Assembly (NCBI GenBank): GCA_963701965.1
Contig: OY969695.1
Coordinates: 992,001-1,056,000 of the forward strand
Direction: 5' to 3'
Length of the DNA stretch: 64,000 nt
Source of the DNA: an uncultured Gemmatimonadales bacterium
Lineage (GTDB): Bacteria > Gemmatimonadota > Gemmatimonadetes > Gemmatimonadales > Gemmatimonadaceae
A model generated the notes under the pieces. The model was given only the letters and a program-made list of their open reading frames with translations, had not been told where the DNA came from and did not search any database. Shown here piece after piece: positions 1,819 through 44,052 of this stretch. The stretch's first letter is position 1, and every line of letters starts with the position of its first letter. The position numbers and the translations under genes were made by a program.

Positions 1819-2676
1819 ATGGCCCAGGCGCCCGGCATTCTCTTTTCGTTCGCGCATCCGGATGACGAGAGCTTTCTCGTGGCCGGGACGGGGTGCGCCT
1901 ACGGAGCCCGCGGCGTCCGGCTCGCCCTGTTCACCGCGACCCGCGGCGGCGCGGGGAAGGTCGGGGATCCGCCGGTGTGCGCGCGCGAGGAGATCACGGG
2001 CGTCCGGGCGCGGGAGTTGAGCGCGGCCACCGCCATCCTGGGCATCGACGACGTCACCCTGCTCGACTATCCGGATGGGGCGCTGGGGGATGTGCCCGCG
2101 GATGACATCCGGCGGCATCTCGTGCGGCTCATCCGGCGCCATCGGCCCGCGGTGGTCGTCACGTTCGACCCGAACGGCGCGAACGGACATCGCGATCACG
2201 TGGCCATCAGCCGGTTCACGTCGGACGCGATCGCCGCGGCCAGTGATCCGCGGTGGTACGAGGACGAAGGCGCGCCGCACGAGGTGCGGCGATTGGTGTG
2301 GACGCCGCCGGCGCCGTGGTGGTCGGACCGCGACCAAACGCTGGGCGTCGACTTTCGCATCGACGTCCATGCCTACTGGGAGCGGAAGGCCGCGGCGCTG
2401 CGGGCGCATTGGACGCAGCATCAGTCGATCAATCGGATTTTCTTTGCGAATGAGCACGCCGCGGAGATCTCGGCGCAGCCGAGATCTGTCCAACCGACCG
2501 GGGATCTCGCGACGCGGAGCGGCGCGGAGATCTCGGCGCAGCCGAGATCTGTCCAACCGACCGGGGATCTCGCGACGCAGCGCGTCGCGGACATCTTGTC
2601 AGTGGAGGCGTTCCGCCAGGCATGGGGGCCGCGACTGCCCGAGCGACCGACCGCCGACCTGCTCGTTGGCTTGTGA
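1819..2676 (+). CDS. PIG-L/LmbE family deacetylase carrying two in-frame 21-aa repeat insertions
   Basis: AHPDDE, ATRG, HRDH motifs; insertion at 2466-2595. Confidence 0.9.
   Translation: MAQAPGILFSFAHPDDESFLVAGTGCAYGARGVRLALFTATRGGAGKVGDPPVCAREEITGVRARELSAATAILGIDDVTLLDYPDGALGDVPADDIRRHLVRLIRRHRPAVVVTFDPNGANGHRDHVAISRFTSDAIAAASDPRWYEDEGAPHEVRRLVWTPPAPWWSDRDQTLGVDFRIDVHAYWERKAAALRAHWTQHQSINRIFFANEHAAEISAQPRSVQPTGDLATRSGAEISAQPRSVQPTGDLATQRVADILSVEAFRQAWGPRLPERPTADLLVGL
2466..2595 (+). repeat. Tandem dimer of 63-bp GATC-bounded palindromic element (copies 1 and 2)
   Basis: GATC at 2466 and 2529, degenerate CATC at 2592 (63-bp period); near-identical to copies at 7352-7418 and 43546-43612. 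Confidence 0.95.
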
Positions 2677-5913: not shown

Positions 5914-6423
5914 ATGAACGACCCCCTCGTGGTACCACGGGATCCGGACGCGCTGGCGGCGCTCTACGAGCGGTACGCGCCGGTCATGATGCGCGTGGCC
6001 TATCATATCACCGGCTCCCGGGCCGACGCCGAGGACGTGCTCCATGACGTCTTTCTGGGCCTGCCGCAGGCGCTCCAGCGGTACGAAGAGCGCGGCCGAC
6101 TCGAATCCTGGCTCGTGCGCCTCACGGCCCGGGCCGCGCTGTCGCGCGGCCGCCGCCGGCGGCGCCAAGCCGAGACACCCATCGAGAACAAGATCGTGTC
6201 CGCCGCTCCGGGAGACGTCGAGCGCCGGCTGGCCCGCGCGGACCTGCGCGCGGCACTTCATGCGCTGCCGGCGTCGCTGCGCGCGGTCGTCGTGTTGAAG
6301 GAGATCGAGGGGTACGCCCACGCCGAAATCGCCGAAATACTCGGGATCACCGCCGGCGCGTCCGAAGTTCGCCTCTGCCGCGCCATGCGACGGCTCCGCG
6401 CCACGCTCACGGAGGGCACATGA
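5914..6423 (+). CDS. ECF RNA polymerase sigma factor
   Basis: DAEDVLHDVF region 2; region 4 VVVLKEIEGYAHAEIAEILG. Confidence 0.9.
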   Translation: MNDPLVVPRDPDALAALYERYAPVMMRVAYHITGSRADAEDVLHDVFLGLPQALQRYEERGRLESWLVRLTARAALSRGRRRRRQAETPIENKIVSAAPGDVERRLARADLRAALHALPASLRAVVVLKEIEGYAHAEIAEILGITAGASEVRLCRAMRRLRATLTEGT

Positions 6424-7520
6424 CACACCTCAGCGATAGCGCACTGCTCCAGTACGCGACTGGTGAATTGACCGGTGATCGCTCGGGCGTCGCCGAGCAT
6501 CTGGCCGGCTGTGGCGCGTGCCGCGGGATCGTGCTCGACACGCGGCGCATCGGGGCCGATCTCCGCGATCTGCCGGTGCCGCCGGCCCCATCGCTGGATG
6601 CGCTGCTGCGGATCCCCAGGGTGCGGCCGCGGACCGTGTGGCCCCAGGCCATTGCCGCGGTCCTGGTCATCGGCATCGCGGGGGCGCTCATCGCCAACAC
6701 GCCCGGCGCCATCGCGACCATGAGCCTATGGCCCGAGCCGCCACACGAGCCCGGGCCGCCGGTTACGGCGATACTGCCCAACCGCATCGCCGCGGGCCGG
6801 TGGACCTACATGTCGCGGATGTACACGGACAGCATCCTGTGGAGCACGCCCGTGATGTTCACGGTGACGGTCGATTCGGCCGCGGTTGGACCGACGCCGG
6901 CGTGGCGCGTCGTGGAGAGCGGCGCCCGGGGCTCCGATACCACCATTGTCGCCCGCGGCGACCTGCGACCAATGTCCGGCGTGCTCTCCGATCCGGGCAG
7001 CGGCCTCCGGGTCGTGACGACCTACTCGCGCGACAGCGTCATCACGATCGACTCGGCGCCGCGATACCGGTACGCCGACGGACATCGCGGGCTCAAAGTG
7101 CGACGGCACGCGTTCGCGATGGCCGACACGGTGCGCGTGCGCGCGGTCAACGAGGCCGGTCTCTGGGCCCTCATGCGGACCTTGCCCCTCGAGCGCTCGT
7201 GGCGCGGAACCATTGCCATGGTCGAGGACCCGGCATGGTCCCACGGCGCGGTGATTCGACAGCTGGCGGTGGAAGGCCGGCATACGATCGTCACGCCCAT
7301 CGGCCGCTGCGACTGCTGGCAGGTTTCCGTCTCGCACGGCGGCGTAACGGGGATCTCGGCGCAGCCGAGATCTGTCCAACCGACAATGGATCTCGCGACG
7401 CGAAGCGTCGCCGAGATCCTGTGGGTGCGCGCGTCCGATCGGATCGTGGTCAAGACCGAGTCCGTCGGCGAAGACGTGGGTGTCGTGGAGCTCGTCGCCG
7501 AGGACCCGCCGCCGACCTAG
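6420..7520 (+). CDS. Zinc-finger (zf-HC2) membrane anti-sigma factor with extracytoplasmic domain; contains 21-aa repeat insertion
   Basis: HLAGCGAC (HxxxCxxC), single TM, coupled to ECF sigma by ATGA overlap. Confidence 0.8.
   Translation: MTHLSDSALLQYATGELTGDRSGVAEHLAGCGACRGIVLDTRRIGADLRDLPVPPAPSLDALLRIPRVRPRTVWPQAIAAVLVIGIAGALIANTPGAIATMSLWPEPPHEPGPPVTAILPNRIAAGRWTYMSRMYTDSILWSTPVMFTVTVDSAAVGPTPAWRVVESGARGSDTTIVARGDLRPMSGVLSDPGSGLRVVTTYSRDSVITIDSAPRYRYADGHRGLKVRRHAFAMADTVRVRAVNEAGLWALMRTLPLERSWRGTIAMVEDPAWSHGAVIRQLAVEGRHTIVTPIGRCDCWQVSVSHGGVTGISAQPRSVQPTMDLATRSVAEILWVRASDRIVVKTESVGEDVGVVELVAEDPPPT
7352..7418 (+). repeat. 63-bp GATC-bounded palindromic element, copy 3
   Basis: GATCTCGGCGCAGCCGAGATCTGTCCAACCGACAATGGATCTCGCGACGCGAAGCGTCGCCGAGATC. 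Confidence 0.95.
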
Positions 7521-17965: not shown

Positions 17966-18036
17966 CGAGGAACGCGTGAGCGTTCCTCGTGTCCAACCGA
18001 CGGTTTCAGGGACGGCCGACAGGCCGTCCCTGAAAC
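17966..18036. repeat. Intergenic hairpin-TGTCCAACCGAC-hairpin element related to the coding repeat
   Basis: Perfect 10-bp stem 17966-17989 (loop GTGA), core 17990-18001, perfect 15-bp stem 18003-18036 (loop GACA). Confidence 0.75.
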
Positions 18037-18083
18037 TTGTCATAACTCCGTCACGTACGGTCACCAACTTGGCCCAGGGATTC

Positions 18084-41671: not shown

Positions 41672-42451
41672 TCAGTCGATGCGCACCGTCAGGCCGTCGA
41701 AGGCCGGCGCGATCCCCCGCGGAAGCTCGGTCTCCAGATCGGCGTGAAAGTTGTCGTGCGTCAGATGCGTGATATACGTCCGCTCGGCGCCGAGCGCCCG
41801 CGCGACATCGATCGCCTCGGGAAAGCTCAGGTGGGTCGGATGTTCGGTGCGGAGCAGCGCGTTGATCACCAACACTTTGGCCCCGGCGAGCACCGCCCGC
41901 GCATCCGGGGGGACGGCCTTGGCGTCGGTGACGTACGCCAGATCGCCGATGCGGTACCCGTAGACCGTCATGTCGCCGTGCGGCAGCGAGACCGGCGTCA
42001 CGTCCACATCGCCGATCCGCACCGTCACAAATGGCTCGAGCGCCCGGGCGTGACCCTTGGGTTTGGACGTGCCCGGCAGCGGTTGGATCGATTCGTCGAA
42101 TACGTAGGCGAACTTGCGCGCCAGCGATGCCAGGGTGGCGGCCGATCCGAACAACGGCAGGGGGCCTTCGCGCCGCACCGAGATCGCCCGCAGGTCATCC
42201 AAGCCGTGCGTGTGGTCGGCGTGATCATGCGTGAACAGCACCGCGTCGATCCGGTCGATGCCGTTGGCGATCAGCTGCACGCGCAGCTCGGGCGGCGTGT
42301 CGATCAGCAGGTGCGTGCCGCGGTCCGTCTCCACGACCGCCCCAACCCGCGTGCGCCGGTCGCGGGGATCGGGGGACCGGCACACCGGGCAGTGGCAGCC
42401 GACCATCGGCACCCCGAAACTGGTCCCGGTGCCGAGAAACGTCAGCTTCAC
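41672..42451 (-). CDS. MBL-fold metallo-hydrolase (PhnP/YycJ-like)
   Basis: LGTGTSFGVP, CHCPVC, THDHADHTHG; GTG start overlapping pyk stop. Confidence 0.9.
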   Translation of the reverse strand: MKLTFLGTGTSFGVPMVGCHCPVCRSPDPRDRRTRVGAVVETDRGTHLLIDTPPELRVQLIANGIDRIDAVLFTHDHADHTHGLDDLRAISVRREGPLPLFGSAATLASLARKFAYVFDESIQPLPGTSKPKGHARALEPFVTVRIGDVDVTPVSLPHGDMTVYGYRIGDLAYVTDAKAVPPDARAVLAGAKVLVINALLRTEHPTHLSFPEAIDVARALGAERTYITHLTHDNFHADLETELPRGIAPAFDGLTVRID

Positions 42452-43929
42452 ACCGTTTCGACCTTGAGCAGGTTCGTGGTCCCGGGCACGTCGAACGGCA
42501 CGCCGGCGGTCACCAGTACGCGATCTCCGCGCCGCGCGAGATTGCGGTCGACGGCGGTCTGGCGGGCCAACGCGACCATGGCGTCGTACTCCTCGCAGTG
42601 GGCCGCGTGGTGGGGGACGACGCCCCACACCAGGGCCAGCTGGCGGTAGGTCCGGGCCATGTCCGTCAACGCCAGGATCGGCACTTTGGGGCGGTGGGAG
42701 GCGACGACCCGGGCGCTGAACCCGCTCTTGGTGAGCACGATGACGAGGGGCGTGGCGATCATGCGCGCCGCGGCCACGGTGGCGGCGGCGATCGCCTCCT
42801 CCGTGGTCAGGGTCGTGCCGGGCTCGCGCCGTTCCTCATCCCGGGCCCGGCCCGGTGGGGGATGACTCTCGACCTCGCAGATGATGCGGCGCATGGCTTC
42901 CACCGCCAATCGCGGAAACGCGCCGGCGGCCGTCTCTGCGGACAGCATGACGGCGTCCGTCCCATCGAGGATCGCGTTGGCGACGTCGCTGGCTTCCGCG
43001 CGCGTGGGGCGCGCGTGCTCGACCATCGACTCCAGCATCTGCGTGGCGGTGATGACCGGCCGGCCCAGGCGGTTGGCCAGGCGAATGATCCGCTTCTGGG
43101 CGATCGGCACTTCCTCGAACGGCAACTCGACGCCAAGATCCCCGCGCGCGACCATCACGCCATCGGAGGCGAGCAGGATCGACTCGATGTTGGCGAGCGC
43201 GACGTCTTTTTCGATTTTCGCGATCACCGGAAGCCATCGCGGGATCATCGCCCGCAGCTCGGCGATGTCCTTGGGCTCGCGCACGAAGCTGAGCGCGAGG
43301 TAGTCCATGCCGTGTTCCACCGCGAAGGCGATGTCGGAGCGGTCCTTCTCCGTGATCGAGGGCGCCGAGACGCGGACGCCGGGTAGGTTCATGCCCTTGT
43401 GGCTCTTGAGCGGGCCGCCGTGCACCACGCGGGCCTGGACGCGCGGCGCGCGGACGTCGAGCACCATCAGCTCAATGAGGCCGTCGTCGATCAGGATGCG
43501 GTCGCCGGCATGCACGTCGCTCGCCAGCGCATCATAGGTAATAGGGATCTCGGCGACGCTCCGCGTCGCGAGATCCGGGGTCGGTTGGACAGATCCCGGC
43601 TGCGCCGAGATCTCGCCACTGTGCACCTGCGGCTCGGGCACGAGCACGACATCGGCGCCCGTCTCCAGCAGCCGCGGCGCCGACAGTTCGCCGATGCGAA
43701 TGCGCGGGCCTTGGAGATCGCCGAGGATGGCGACCGGCAGTCCCCGGGCGTCGGCGGCTCGGCGCACGCGGGTGATCGTCTCCAGATGTTCCGCTTGGGT
43801 GCCGTGCGAGAAGTTGATGCGGGCGACGTTCATTCCGGCGTCGAGCAGGTCGCCGATCGCCGATTCCGTGCTGCTCGCGGGCCCGAGCGTACAGACGATT
43901 TTTGTGCGAGGATAACTGGAAGTGGGCAC
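42448..43929 (-). CDS. pyk: Pyruvate kinase with in-frame 21-aa repeat insertion in the B domain
   Basis: RTKIVCTLGP, RINFSHG, IAKIE, MVARGDLG, TQMLESM, DAVMLSAETA; GTG start 43929. Confidence 0.96.
   Translation of the reverse strand: MPTSSYPRTKIVCTLGPASSTESAIGDLLDAGMNVARINFSHGTQAEHLETITRVRRAADARGLPVAILGDLQGPRIRIGELSAPRLLETGADVVLVPEPQVHSGEISAQPGSVQPTPDLATRSVAEIPITYDALASDVHAGDRILIDDGLIELMVLDVRAPRVQARVVHGGPLKSHKGMNLPGVRVSAPSITEKDRSDIAFAVEHGMDYLALSFVREPKDIAELRAMIPRWLPVIAKIEKDVALANIESILLASDGVMVARGDLGVELPFEEVPIAQKRIIRLANRLGRPVITATQMLESMVEHARPTRAEASDVANAILDGTDAVMLSAETAAGAFPRLAVEAMRRIICEVESHPPPGRARDEERREPGTTLTTEEAIAAATVAAARMIATPLVIVLTKSGFSARVVASHRPKVPILALTDMARTYRQLALVWGVVPHHAAHCEEYDAMVALARQTAVDRNLARRGDRVLVTAGVPFDVPGTTNLLKVETV
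43546..43612 (-). repeat. 63-bp GATC-bounded palindromic element, copy 4
   Basis: Minus strand GATCTCGGCGCAGCCGGGATCTGTCCAACCGACCCCGGATCTCGCGACGCGGAGCGTCGCCGAGATC. Confidence 0.95.
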
Positions 43930-44052
43930 CGCCGTTGAACTTAAACGGTGCGCCACCGTTTCGCAGGCGGTCGAGACCGTCACACACCGTAACCCGTCGT
44001 TAACGCCAAGCGATGCTCCGGCGTCTGCCCCTCGACTCTGACGGGAGGCAGC

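Follow-up and report, generated by a model that had tools for sequence, protein, structure and literature searches.

How can the same short palindromic sequence lie inside three unrelated genes and leave all of them readable, and how did it get there? This question is raised by a 64,000-nucleotide stretch of the genome of an uncultured Gemmatimonadales bacterium (contig OY969695.1, positions 992,001 to 1,056,000; hereafter the window). An initial annotation, made from the letters alone, described a 63-bp element bounded by GATC that had inserted in frame into these genes and suspected a small non-autonomous mobile element. Here, we follow up this observation computationally. We find that this GATC element of 63 bp represents a single class within a wider family, whose members are built as hairpin, core and hairpin. 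The best reading of this family is a non-autonomous mobile hairpin element, similar to repetitive extragenic palindromic sequences (REPs) and Rickettsia palindromic elements (RPEs), that likely acts as single-stranded DNA. We found no earlier description of it.

The window contains four near-identical 63-bp copies at three loci, exactly where the initial annotation had placed them (Table 1). A 16-mer that covers the end of the first hairpin (H1) and the core, GATCTGTCCAACCGAC, occurs four times where 0.01 occurrences are expected, and none of 100 shuffled sequences reaches four. Folded as DNA, all four copies form two hairpins that flank the core, as had been proposed (z-scores from -3.2 to -7.6). 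H1 is a 9-bp hairpin with a GCA triloop, and the second hairpin (H2) is a bulged hairpin of 14 bp with a GNA triloop. The core between them, GTCCAACCGAC, is capable of forming a 3-bp mini stem of its own. In the tandem pair the H2 of copy 1 overlaps the adjoining unit, copy 2. Two further claims could be reproduced: none of the four copies has a stop codon in any of its six frames, and copies 3 and 4 have perfect 10-bp terminal inverted repeats.

A fifth, divergent member of the family lies between genes. It was missing from the initial list, and it is also missed by R1, the covariance model of H1 and core that we used for the census below.

Table 1. Family members and host genes in the window (window coordinates), and cases of flank-derived stems in the source genome (G000) and two other genomes of the genus (G003, G005).
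Feature	Position	Strand	Remarks
GATC-class copy 1 of tandem pair	2466..2528	+	H1 2466-2486, core 2488-2498, H2 to 2532; R1 model 59.7 bits
GATC-class copy 2 of tandem pair	2529..2595	+	end GATC decayed to CATC
GATC-class copy 3	7352..7418	+	H1 7352-7372, core 7374-7384, H2 7388-7419
GATC-class copy 4	43546..43612	-	H1 43592-43612, core 43580-43590, H2 43545-43576, all on the minus strand
Fifth, divergent family member, intergenic	17966..18037	+	10-bp H1 with 4-nt loop GTGA, core GTCCAACCGAC, 15-bp H2; DNA fold z-score -9.6
Host gene 1, PIG-L family deacetylase	1819..2676	+	Pfam PIG-L; tandem pair adds 42 residues near the C-terminus
Host gene 2, 366-aa protein	6420..7520	+	no Pfam match
Host gene 3, pyruvate kinase	42448..43983	-	Pfam PK and PK_C; 21-residue insert before the (I/V)P(I/V)TY strand
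Flank-derived stem, case a	G000 5094842		last codons ...RGIYA* of a gene, conserved in 4/4 relatives, form one arm
Flank-derived stem, case b	G000 4780691		glutamine synthetase ends ...FLWNLF* in 5/5 relatives; here TAG, then directly CTAAAAC, the inverse of GTTTTAG
Flank-derived stem, case c	G005, after a gene ending ...TVF*		no element at this site in G001 or G003
Flank-derived stem, case d	G003 L287		arm CGTCGAGACCC present at the empty site in the source genome
Flank-derived stem, case e	G003 L310		CTAGAGCAG native; CTGCTCTAG is its copy

All three host open reading frames (ORFs) read the element as ISAQPxSVQPTxDLATRSxAE, and the reading frame stays unbroken. The predicted pyruvate kinase contains the peptide ISAQPGSVQPTPDLATRSVAE. 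This protein aligns over its full length with solved bacterial enzymes, for example 2e28. It is also the only pyruvate kinase that a protein search of the whole genome recovers, because the remaining matches are short hits to the element-encoded peptide.

Orthologues lack exactly the residues that the element adds. For the pyruvate kinase, a gap of exactly 21 residues is present in 11 of 11 relatives (10 of 10 without genome G012, which is flagged as unpublished). The 42 residues of the tandem pair are missing from all four homologues of the PIG-L protein, and the 21 residues of the 366-aa protein from both of its homologues. Hence empty sites exist for all three hosts; the initial annotation had noted that a continuous protein results when the element is removed. 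At the DNA level, the empty site of the pyruvate kinase gene is GGC GAG ATC CCG in several relatives. The source genome reads GGC GAG ATC, the 63-bp unit, and then CCT, so that CGAGATC is duplicated and stands on both sides of the insert.

The window copies are part of a larger family in the source genome, which consists of one contig of 5,116,566 bp with 67.1% G+C. All members share H1 with the consensus GAKCYCSGC-GNA-GCSGRGMTC (a 9-bp hairpin with a GNA triloop), one linker base and then the 11-nt core GTYCAACCGAC. The sequence of H2 varies by class, some members have a third hairpin, and unit lengths range from 63 to 95 bp across the family. Among 37 aligned copies H1 is paired in 96.7% of cells, a percentage inflated by the preselection of copies with at most one H1 mismatch. 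What counts here is therefore how diverse the pair types are: seven of the nine pairs have changed on both sides. None of 500 shuffles reaches the observed value, and controls with a slid alignment reach 28-41%. We also considered that H2 is an independent repeat captured by H1 and core, and rejected this, as the inner motifs of H2 nearly always adjoin the core (14/17, and all of the clear cases).

Our initial hairpin filters were too permissive for a GC-rich genome, and we replaced them with the R1 covariance model (cut-off E<=1e-4). The model finds 80 copies at 51 loci in the source genome. All five other genomes of the genus are positive as well, with 9, 9, 54, 6 and 6 copies; counts from fragmented assemblies are lower bounds, and divergent members are missed by R1. 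Outside the genus, the same model with stricter filters finds no positive among 55 genomes that represent other genera in the family and the order. A scan of named sequence records with a degenerate pattern returned 106 stretches, mostly chance matches, as the pattern predicts. Those with a preceding hairpin (5 strict matches and 7 near-matches) all belong to Gemmatimonadales, Gemmatimonadaceae or their metagenome-assembled genome (MAG) records.

The classes of the family differ in the tetranucleotide at which they are found and in where they lie relative to genes. Copies of the GATC class, with an H2 of the form GGATCTCGCGACGC-GNA-GCGTCGCCGAGATCC, are located inside ORFs and are open in six of six frames. 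Pfam domains were found in 16 of 19 tested host ORFs, among them VirD4/TraG, Lhr helicase, Ada/AlkA, Ogt, a Y-family polymerase, GATase and an MBL-rhodanese protein, as well as a PD40 protein, an alpha/beta hydrolase, DUF4015, a TMEM260-like protein and others.

These hosts do not all read the element in the same way. GATC-class DNA is read as EISAQP... or DPGAAGISPTD..., and on the opposite strand as EISPTLRVARSGVGWTD... or EDLGDAPRREIRGRLD...; thus the single frame seen in the window is no rule. The claim that every copy sits in the same frame and orientation holds within the window and fails genome-wide, where at least three combinations of frame and orientation occur. Sense orientation is the commoner one, by about 14 to 3 among Pfam-supported hosts (our own count). 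The genome contains 46,130 GATC sites, 88% of them in coding sequence. The G of GATC falls on codon position 3 in 66%, on position 1 in 29% and on position 2 in 4.5% of cases, and the frames used by GATC-class copies agree with these phases. The constant reading frame in the window is therefore a product of GATC codon phase in a GC-rich genome and is not universal.

Copies of the CTAG class behave differently. Their H1 starts with GAGCTCCGC..., their H2 has the form ...CTAG-CAGGGTGC-GTTTTTCA-GCACCCTG-CTAG..., and they are open in one to three of six frames. They are located at gene ends, on TAG stop codons. CTAG is rare in the genome (1,914 sites, observed/expected 0.12), and 22.5% of its sites overlap stop codons. 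When a gene is called as ending within an element, the stop codon is TAG in 20 of 26 cases, compared to 1,345 of 4,481 genes (30%) genome-wide. At six loci H1 starts with the G of the stop codon. A TCGA-based class with three hairpins dominates in G003, where it is also found in frame in genes. Hence the proposed targeting of GATC applies to the GATC class and is a class trait, not a rule of the family, because the other classes use CTAG or carry TCGA. As a separate observation, tetranucleotide palindromes are skewed across the genome: TTAA is nearly as depleted as CTAG (observed/expected 0.15 and 0.12), and GATC (2.96) and TCGA (2.89) are enriched.

Tandem arrays show what genes tolerate. Six arrays lie inside ORFs, with periods of 63, 63, 69, 63, 63 and 63 bp, all of them divisible by three; for the five that lie outside, the periods are 68, 65, 62, 66 and 68 bp. 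The in-frame periods are therefore a signature of selection against frameshifts. Together with the intact host ORFs and the interruption of the genome's only pyruvate kinase, they bear out the suggestion that the proteome tolerates the element. About 18 of the 51 loci are inside ORFs, and the remainder lie at or between gene ends; outside the window genes were called with a crude home-made caller, and these coding and intergenic counts are therefore approximate.

Some placements are worth recording in their own right. GC skew is noisy in this genome, and element orientation follows no simple two-replichore pattern. The cumulative GC skew fails to close, with a net excess of C. Seventeen of the 51 loci cluster at 2.25-2.75 Mb (G000:C1), around a switch in GC skew near 2.65 Mb, and nearly all of them belong to the GATCCCGGC subfamily. 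This region, which holds a VirD4/TraG coupling-protein gene carrying two copies (2401500-2403116), may mark a feature of replication or stem from an integrated conjugative element. An antisense array of four units lies in a Y-family polymerase-like gene (IMS, IMS_C; G000:C1:2274376-2276185, loci L015 and L016); its N- and C-terminal domains lie in different frames, and the gene may be disrupted or frameshifted. By simple count, DNA is the substrate of five of about 16 hosts with Pfam support (Lhr, Ada/AlkA, Ogt, Y-family polymerase, VirD4). At G000:C1:4779346-4779364 the frame of an HDOD/EAL-domain gene continues across the 3' arm of H2 to a TGA within the loop, and its last codons and stop are likely supplied by the element. 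We found no orthologue of this gene in the genus.

Has the family moved recently? We examined 40 copies in G003 and located both flanks in the source genome for 24 of them. All 16 insertion sites that we aligned are empty in the source genome. Conversely, the window sites and several other sites of the source genome are empty in relatives. Judged from these sequence comparisons, the family appears to have inserted at many sites since the species diverged. At two intergenic sites the same spacer holds different classes in different species, and such doubly occupied spacers could be hot spots or old insertions.

The filled sites carry direct repeats: CGAGATC (pyruvate kinase), GATC (copy 3), CTAG and TAGAT. 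Across these four filled/empty comparisons the junction repeats are 4-7 bp long, and each contains a 4-nt palindrome. The same tetranucleotide is also present inside the element, at the bases of the hairpins.

Other tandem repeats were noticed near some loci. Downstream of glutamine synthetase in G005 (L277) lies a long tandem array with a unit of about 17 nt that contains GGATCGCA...TTCT(A/G); its sequence is unrelated to the hairpin family. Tandem 15-nt repeats of the type GCCGTTGATCCGGTC follow the stop codon of the homologue of G000 1363845-1364738 in G004 and G003 (L232 and L234). In the source genome, three tandem copies of CCTAGGGCG directly adjoin the H1 side of an element (L207, G000:C1:3025880-3025910).

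The terminal hairpins hold a second trace of insertion. Copies of the CTAG class, and copies related to them, vary in the sequence of the outer stem of their terminal hairpin, but within each copy the two arms of this stem are complementary. For 15 CTAG-class copies, strict pairing extends 2.87 bp past the tetranucleotide, compared to 0.54 bp when spacers and flanks are swapped; none of 10,000 permutations reaches the observed value. Five filled/empty comparisons (cases a to e in Table 1) reveal where the arms come from. Native DNA makes up the 3' arm; the 5' arm is an inverted copy of this native flank, positioned exactly between the core and the inner hairpin.

To explain these observations, we propose that the genus-restricted family of small hairpins is non-autonomous mobile DNA and that an enzyme recognises H1 and the core GTYCAACCGAC, probably as single-stranded DNA. 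We give this reading a probability of roughly 60%. In such a scheme some factor would recognise H1 and core, and a staggered break at a tetranucleotide would take up the element in single-stranded form. The internal copies of the tetranucleotide at the hairpin bases would pair with the target ends, and the second strand would be primed from the 3' end of the target. At the very stable GNA mini-hairpin the new strand would then fold back on itself, and a short piece of the flank, a few bases long, would be copied. Such copying would place an inverted flank copy exactly between core and inner hairpin, where it is seen. Tandem arrays may arise from re-insertion into the element's own terminal tetranucleotide or from slippage. 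In genes, selection would retain only stop-free, in-frame copies, which would leave inserts of 21 residues. Two papers report that loops of the d(GNA)/GCGAAGC type form DNA mini-hairpins of extraordinary stability (PMC3201870, PMC13037366). The loops of the element are of this type, which points to single-stranded DNA rather than RNA.

A number of points weigh against this proposal. No mobilising enzyme was found, neither in the window, as had been noted before, nor elsewhere in the searches made. The Y1/RAYT and IS200 domain PF01797 is absent from all six genomes of the genus in a search whose control was positive in 6 of 14 known genomes (RAYT, REP-associated tyrosine transposase; IS, insertion sequence). 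Our survey of IS covered the multi-copy ones, which are IS21, IS3 and IS256, none of them at an element locus. Matches to GIY-YIG and DUF559 are not flanked by the element either. The GIY-YIG matches fall in long open frames of about 400-900 aa, which we presume to be UvrC-like, and the one weak DUF559 match lies within a frame of 1644 aa. No excision or insertion event was seen directly. The sole public sequencing run with this region is a low-depth soil metagenome, stored as contigs, and the pyruvate kinase site is not spanned by any of them; no RNA run is listed with the region. That the element enters as a single strand and that the new strand snaps back is deduced from the anatomy of the copies. 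The copy at G000 4780691 is a zero-loop palindrome with no inner hairpin; snap-back accounts for it less well than a covalently closed hairpin intermediate would. Copies of the GATC class have no flank copying beyond one base. Finally, the preselection of the aligned copies affects the covariation, and placement relative to genes depends on a caller based on G+C at third codon positions (GC3; 4,481 genes, 86% coverage).

The missing enzyme also opens the door to a process that needs none. Microhomology-mediated template switching between a copy and a fork stalled at a 4-nt palindrome, with snap-back induced by the hairpin, would agree with the failure to find a transposase in the searches made. 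The junctions are indeed short palindromic microhomologies, inverted flank copies are a classic product of hairpin template switching, and tandem arrays are common. However, the 11-nt core is nearly invariant and H1 pairing is kept by compensatory changes across subfamilies, which favours recognition by a factor over passive copying. Furthermore, with 80 copies in the source genome and 54 in G003 that share no sites, the rate is high for rare multi-switch events between distant loci. We therefore regard an enzyme-free origin as improbable. A lost enzyme is another option: REP-type sequences could once have been spread by a RAYT (a Y1 HUH transposase) that has since disappeared, leaving fossils. 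Hairpin repeats that lie mostly at gene 3' ends and partly inside genes fit this idea, and so do the repair hosts (Lhr, Ada/AlkA, Ogt, Y-family polymerase), which resemble the hosts of intragenic REPs described in PMC3733652. We nevertheless consider such fossils quite improbable. Besides the absence of PF01797 from the whole genus in a search with positive controls, the hairpin ends carry no GTAG or CGTC tag, and the junction duplications are foreign to Y1 transposition. Insertion sites are almost entirely species-specific; activity must therefore have outlasted speciation in several lineages, all of which lack a RAYT.

The same turnover speaks against a structural motif that is useful to the host, such as a terminator, an mRNA stabiliser or a protein-binding site similar to bacterial interspersed mosaic elements (BIMEs), kept at gene ends with the intragenic copies as accidents. 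Many copies are indeed placed precisely at the 3' ends of genes, in the gaps of convergent or tandem gene pairs, the hairpin stems are maintained and the terminal stems are long. Yet the sites differ between species, the loops are of the DNA-specific GNA type and not followed by a T-run, and Rfam has no match. A host function would also leave the origin of the copies unexplained, and it is compatible with mobility; as an explanation in its own right we judge it distinctly unlikely. Even less can be said for the 21-residue peptide as the selected unit, spread among genes by recombination. The peptide shared by the three window hosts would suggest this, but other hosts read the same DNA in other frames or on the other strand (DPGAAGISPTD..., EISPTLRVARSGVGWTD..., EDLGDAPRREIRGRLD...), most copies are non-coding, and conservation tracks the DNA hairpins and not the codons. 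Such a protein module is very improbable and already contradicted by the use of several frames. An assembly artefact has almost no probability at all. We found no point that supports it; the genome is a single 5.1-Mb contig, five further assemblies of the genus contain the family, as do named MAG records, and the host ORFs are intact.

Two further comparisons with known systems were tried and dropped. The core fits the RYYYAAC motif of integron attC sites, but by eye the unit contains no complementary GTTRRRY partner. A Helitron/IS91-like reading is disfavoured because the junctions do not fit the pattern A-TC...CTRR-T (insertion points at the hyphens) in both classes.

Mobile DNA recognised through H1 and core thus remains our preferred explanation, and the question is whether the family belongs to a known system. 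Rfam gives no hit at gathering score in the window, and at E<=1 only sub-threshold noise from miRNA hairpins in 20 copies. Plasmid and phage collections contain no blastn match (word size 11). In the literature, with subscription journals outside the scope, we found no description, and the core sequence appears only in unrelated papers. So far, the initial impression that this is not a described family stands.

In its behaviour, the family appears closest to RPEs and to intragenic REPs. According to PMC10969869 and PMC3733652, RPEs are palindromic repeats of about 150 bp, confined to Rickettsia, that lie in frame in functional genes and also in non-coding DNA and have no known transposase. The Gemmatimonadales family shares with them the in-frame palindromes that add a peptide to unrelated, apparently functional genes (the three window hosts and the 16 hosts with Pfam domains), next to non-coding copies. 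It differs in its smaller units and its GC-rich genus, a separation made by length and host lineage. It also differs in the single-stranded core between two GNA-loop hairpins, the class-specific tetranucleotide targets, the classes that hug stop codons and the flank-derived stems.

REPs and BIMEs (including REPINs) resemble the family in other ways. PMC3733652 describes intragenic REPs, often in replication and repair genes, and a palindrome that ends on one side in a conserved tetranucleotide, GTAG or CGTC. Both groups consist of short repeats that form hairpins and number from tens to hundreds; most copies follow genes, and some lie within genes, notably repair genes. Both form clusters or arrays, and their stems vary with compensatory changes. 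The 80 short imperfect palindromes at 51 mostly extragenic loci fit this picture. In contrast, no constant GTAG or CGTC is present in the 37 aligned copies, in which H1 begins with GAGC, GATC or GCGC and the ends of H2 vary. There is no RAYT in the six genomes, the unit is a hairpin, 11-nt core and hairpin in one orientation and not an inverted pair of REPs, and insertions leave target duplications and inverted flank copies.

MITEs (miniature transposable elements with inverted repeats) such as the Correia elements of Neisseria, which can fuse in frame with ORFs according to PMC10969869, are small and non-autonomous and have short target duplications like the 4-7 bp repeats at our junctions. 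The GATC class also shares their terminal inverted repeats, here of 10 bp. The CTAG and TCGA classes, however, have none, no parent IS with matching ends was found among the multi-copy IS, and the conserved part is internal (hairpin and core) and not terminal.

Palindrome-associated transposable elements derived from IS200/IS605 are a further candidate. IS608 has subterminal hairpins on one strand, tetranucleotide-specific insertion and recognition of single-stranded DNA, and the family shares the first two features and presumably the third. IS200/IS605 elements transpose by a Y1 transposase and leave no target duplications. Our genomes lack the transposase (PF01797), and the junctions have duplications. 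The family therefore fails the defining features of REP/RAYT systems, of IS-derived MITEs and of IS200/IS605 derivatives. Its novel content is the flank-copying scar and the rules of its target classes.

How far this novelty reaches is less certain. It is possible, though we hold it to be rather doubtful, that the family represents a new kind of bacterial mobile DNA: a hairpin and core with no transposase of a known family, for which 4-nt palindromes would be the integration sites and single-stranded DNA the integrating form. Part of its terminal hairpin would come from the target, through fold-back copying of the flank at every insertion, so that the element would tailor itself to stop codons and reading frames. 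The family may also be the GC-rich representative of a widespread, so far undescribed class of in-frame hairpin repeats that hug stop codons.

For the biology of such elements, the family offers a second, independent and far more tractable RPE-like case of selfish palindromes within essential proteins. The setting is a free-living, GC-rich lineage with a complete genome and several congeners with empty sites. It comes with testable rules: the target tetranucleotide decides whether copies lie in genes or on stop codons, GATC codon phase sets the peptide, and only stop-free units with a length divisible by three survive in ORFs. In practice, elements of this kind confound gene calling and the alignment of orthologues and create species-specific peptide loops. 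The flank-derived stems are a molecular scar that constrains the chemistry of insertion, and they could lead to a new enzyme or to a new form of DNA mobility that is driven by repair.

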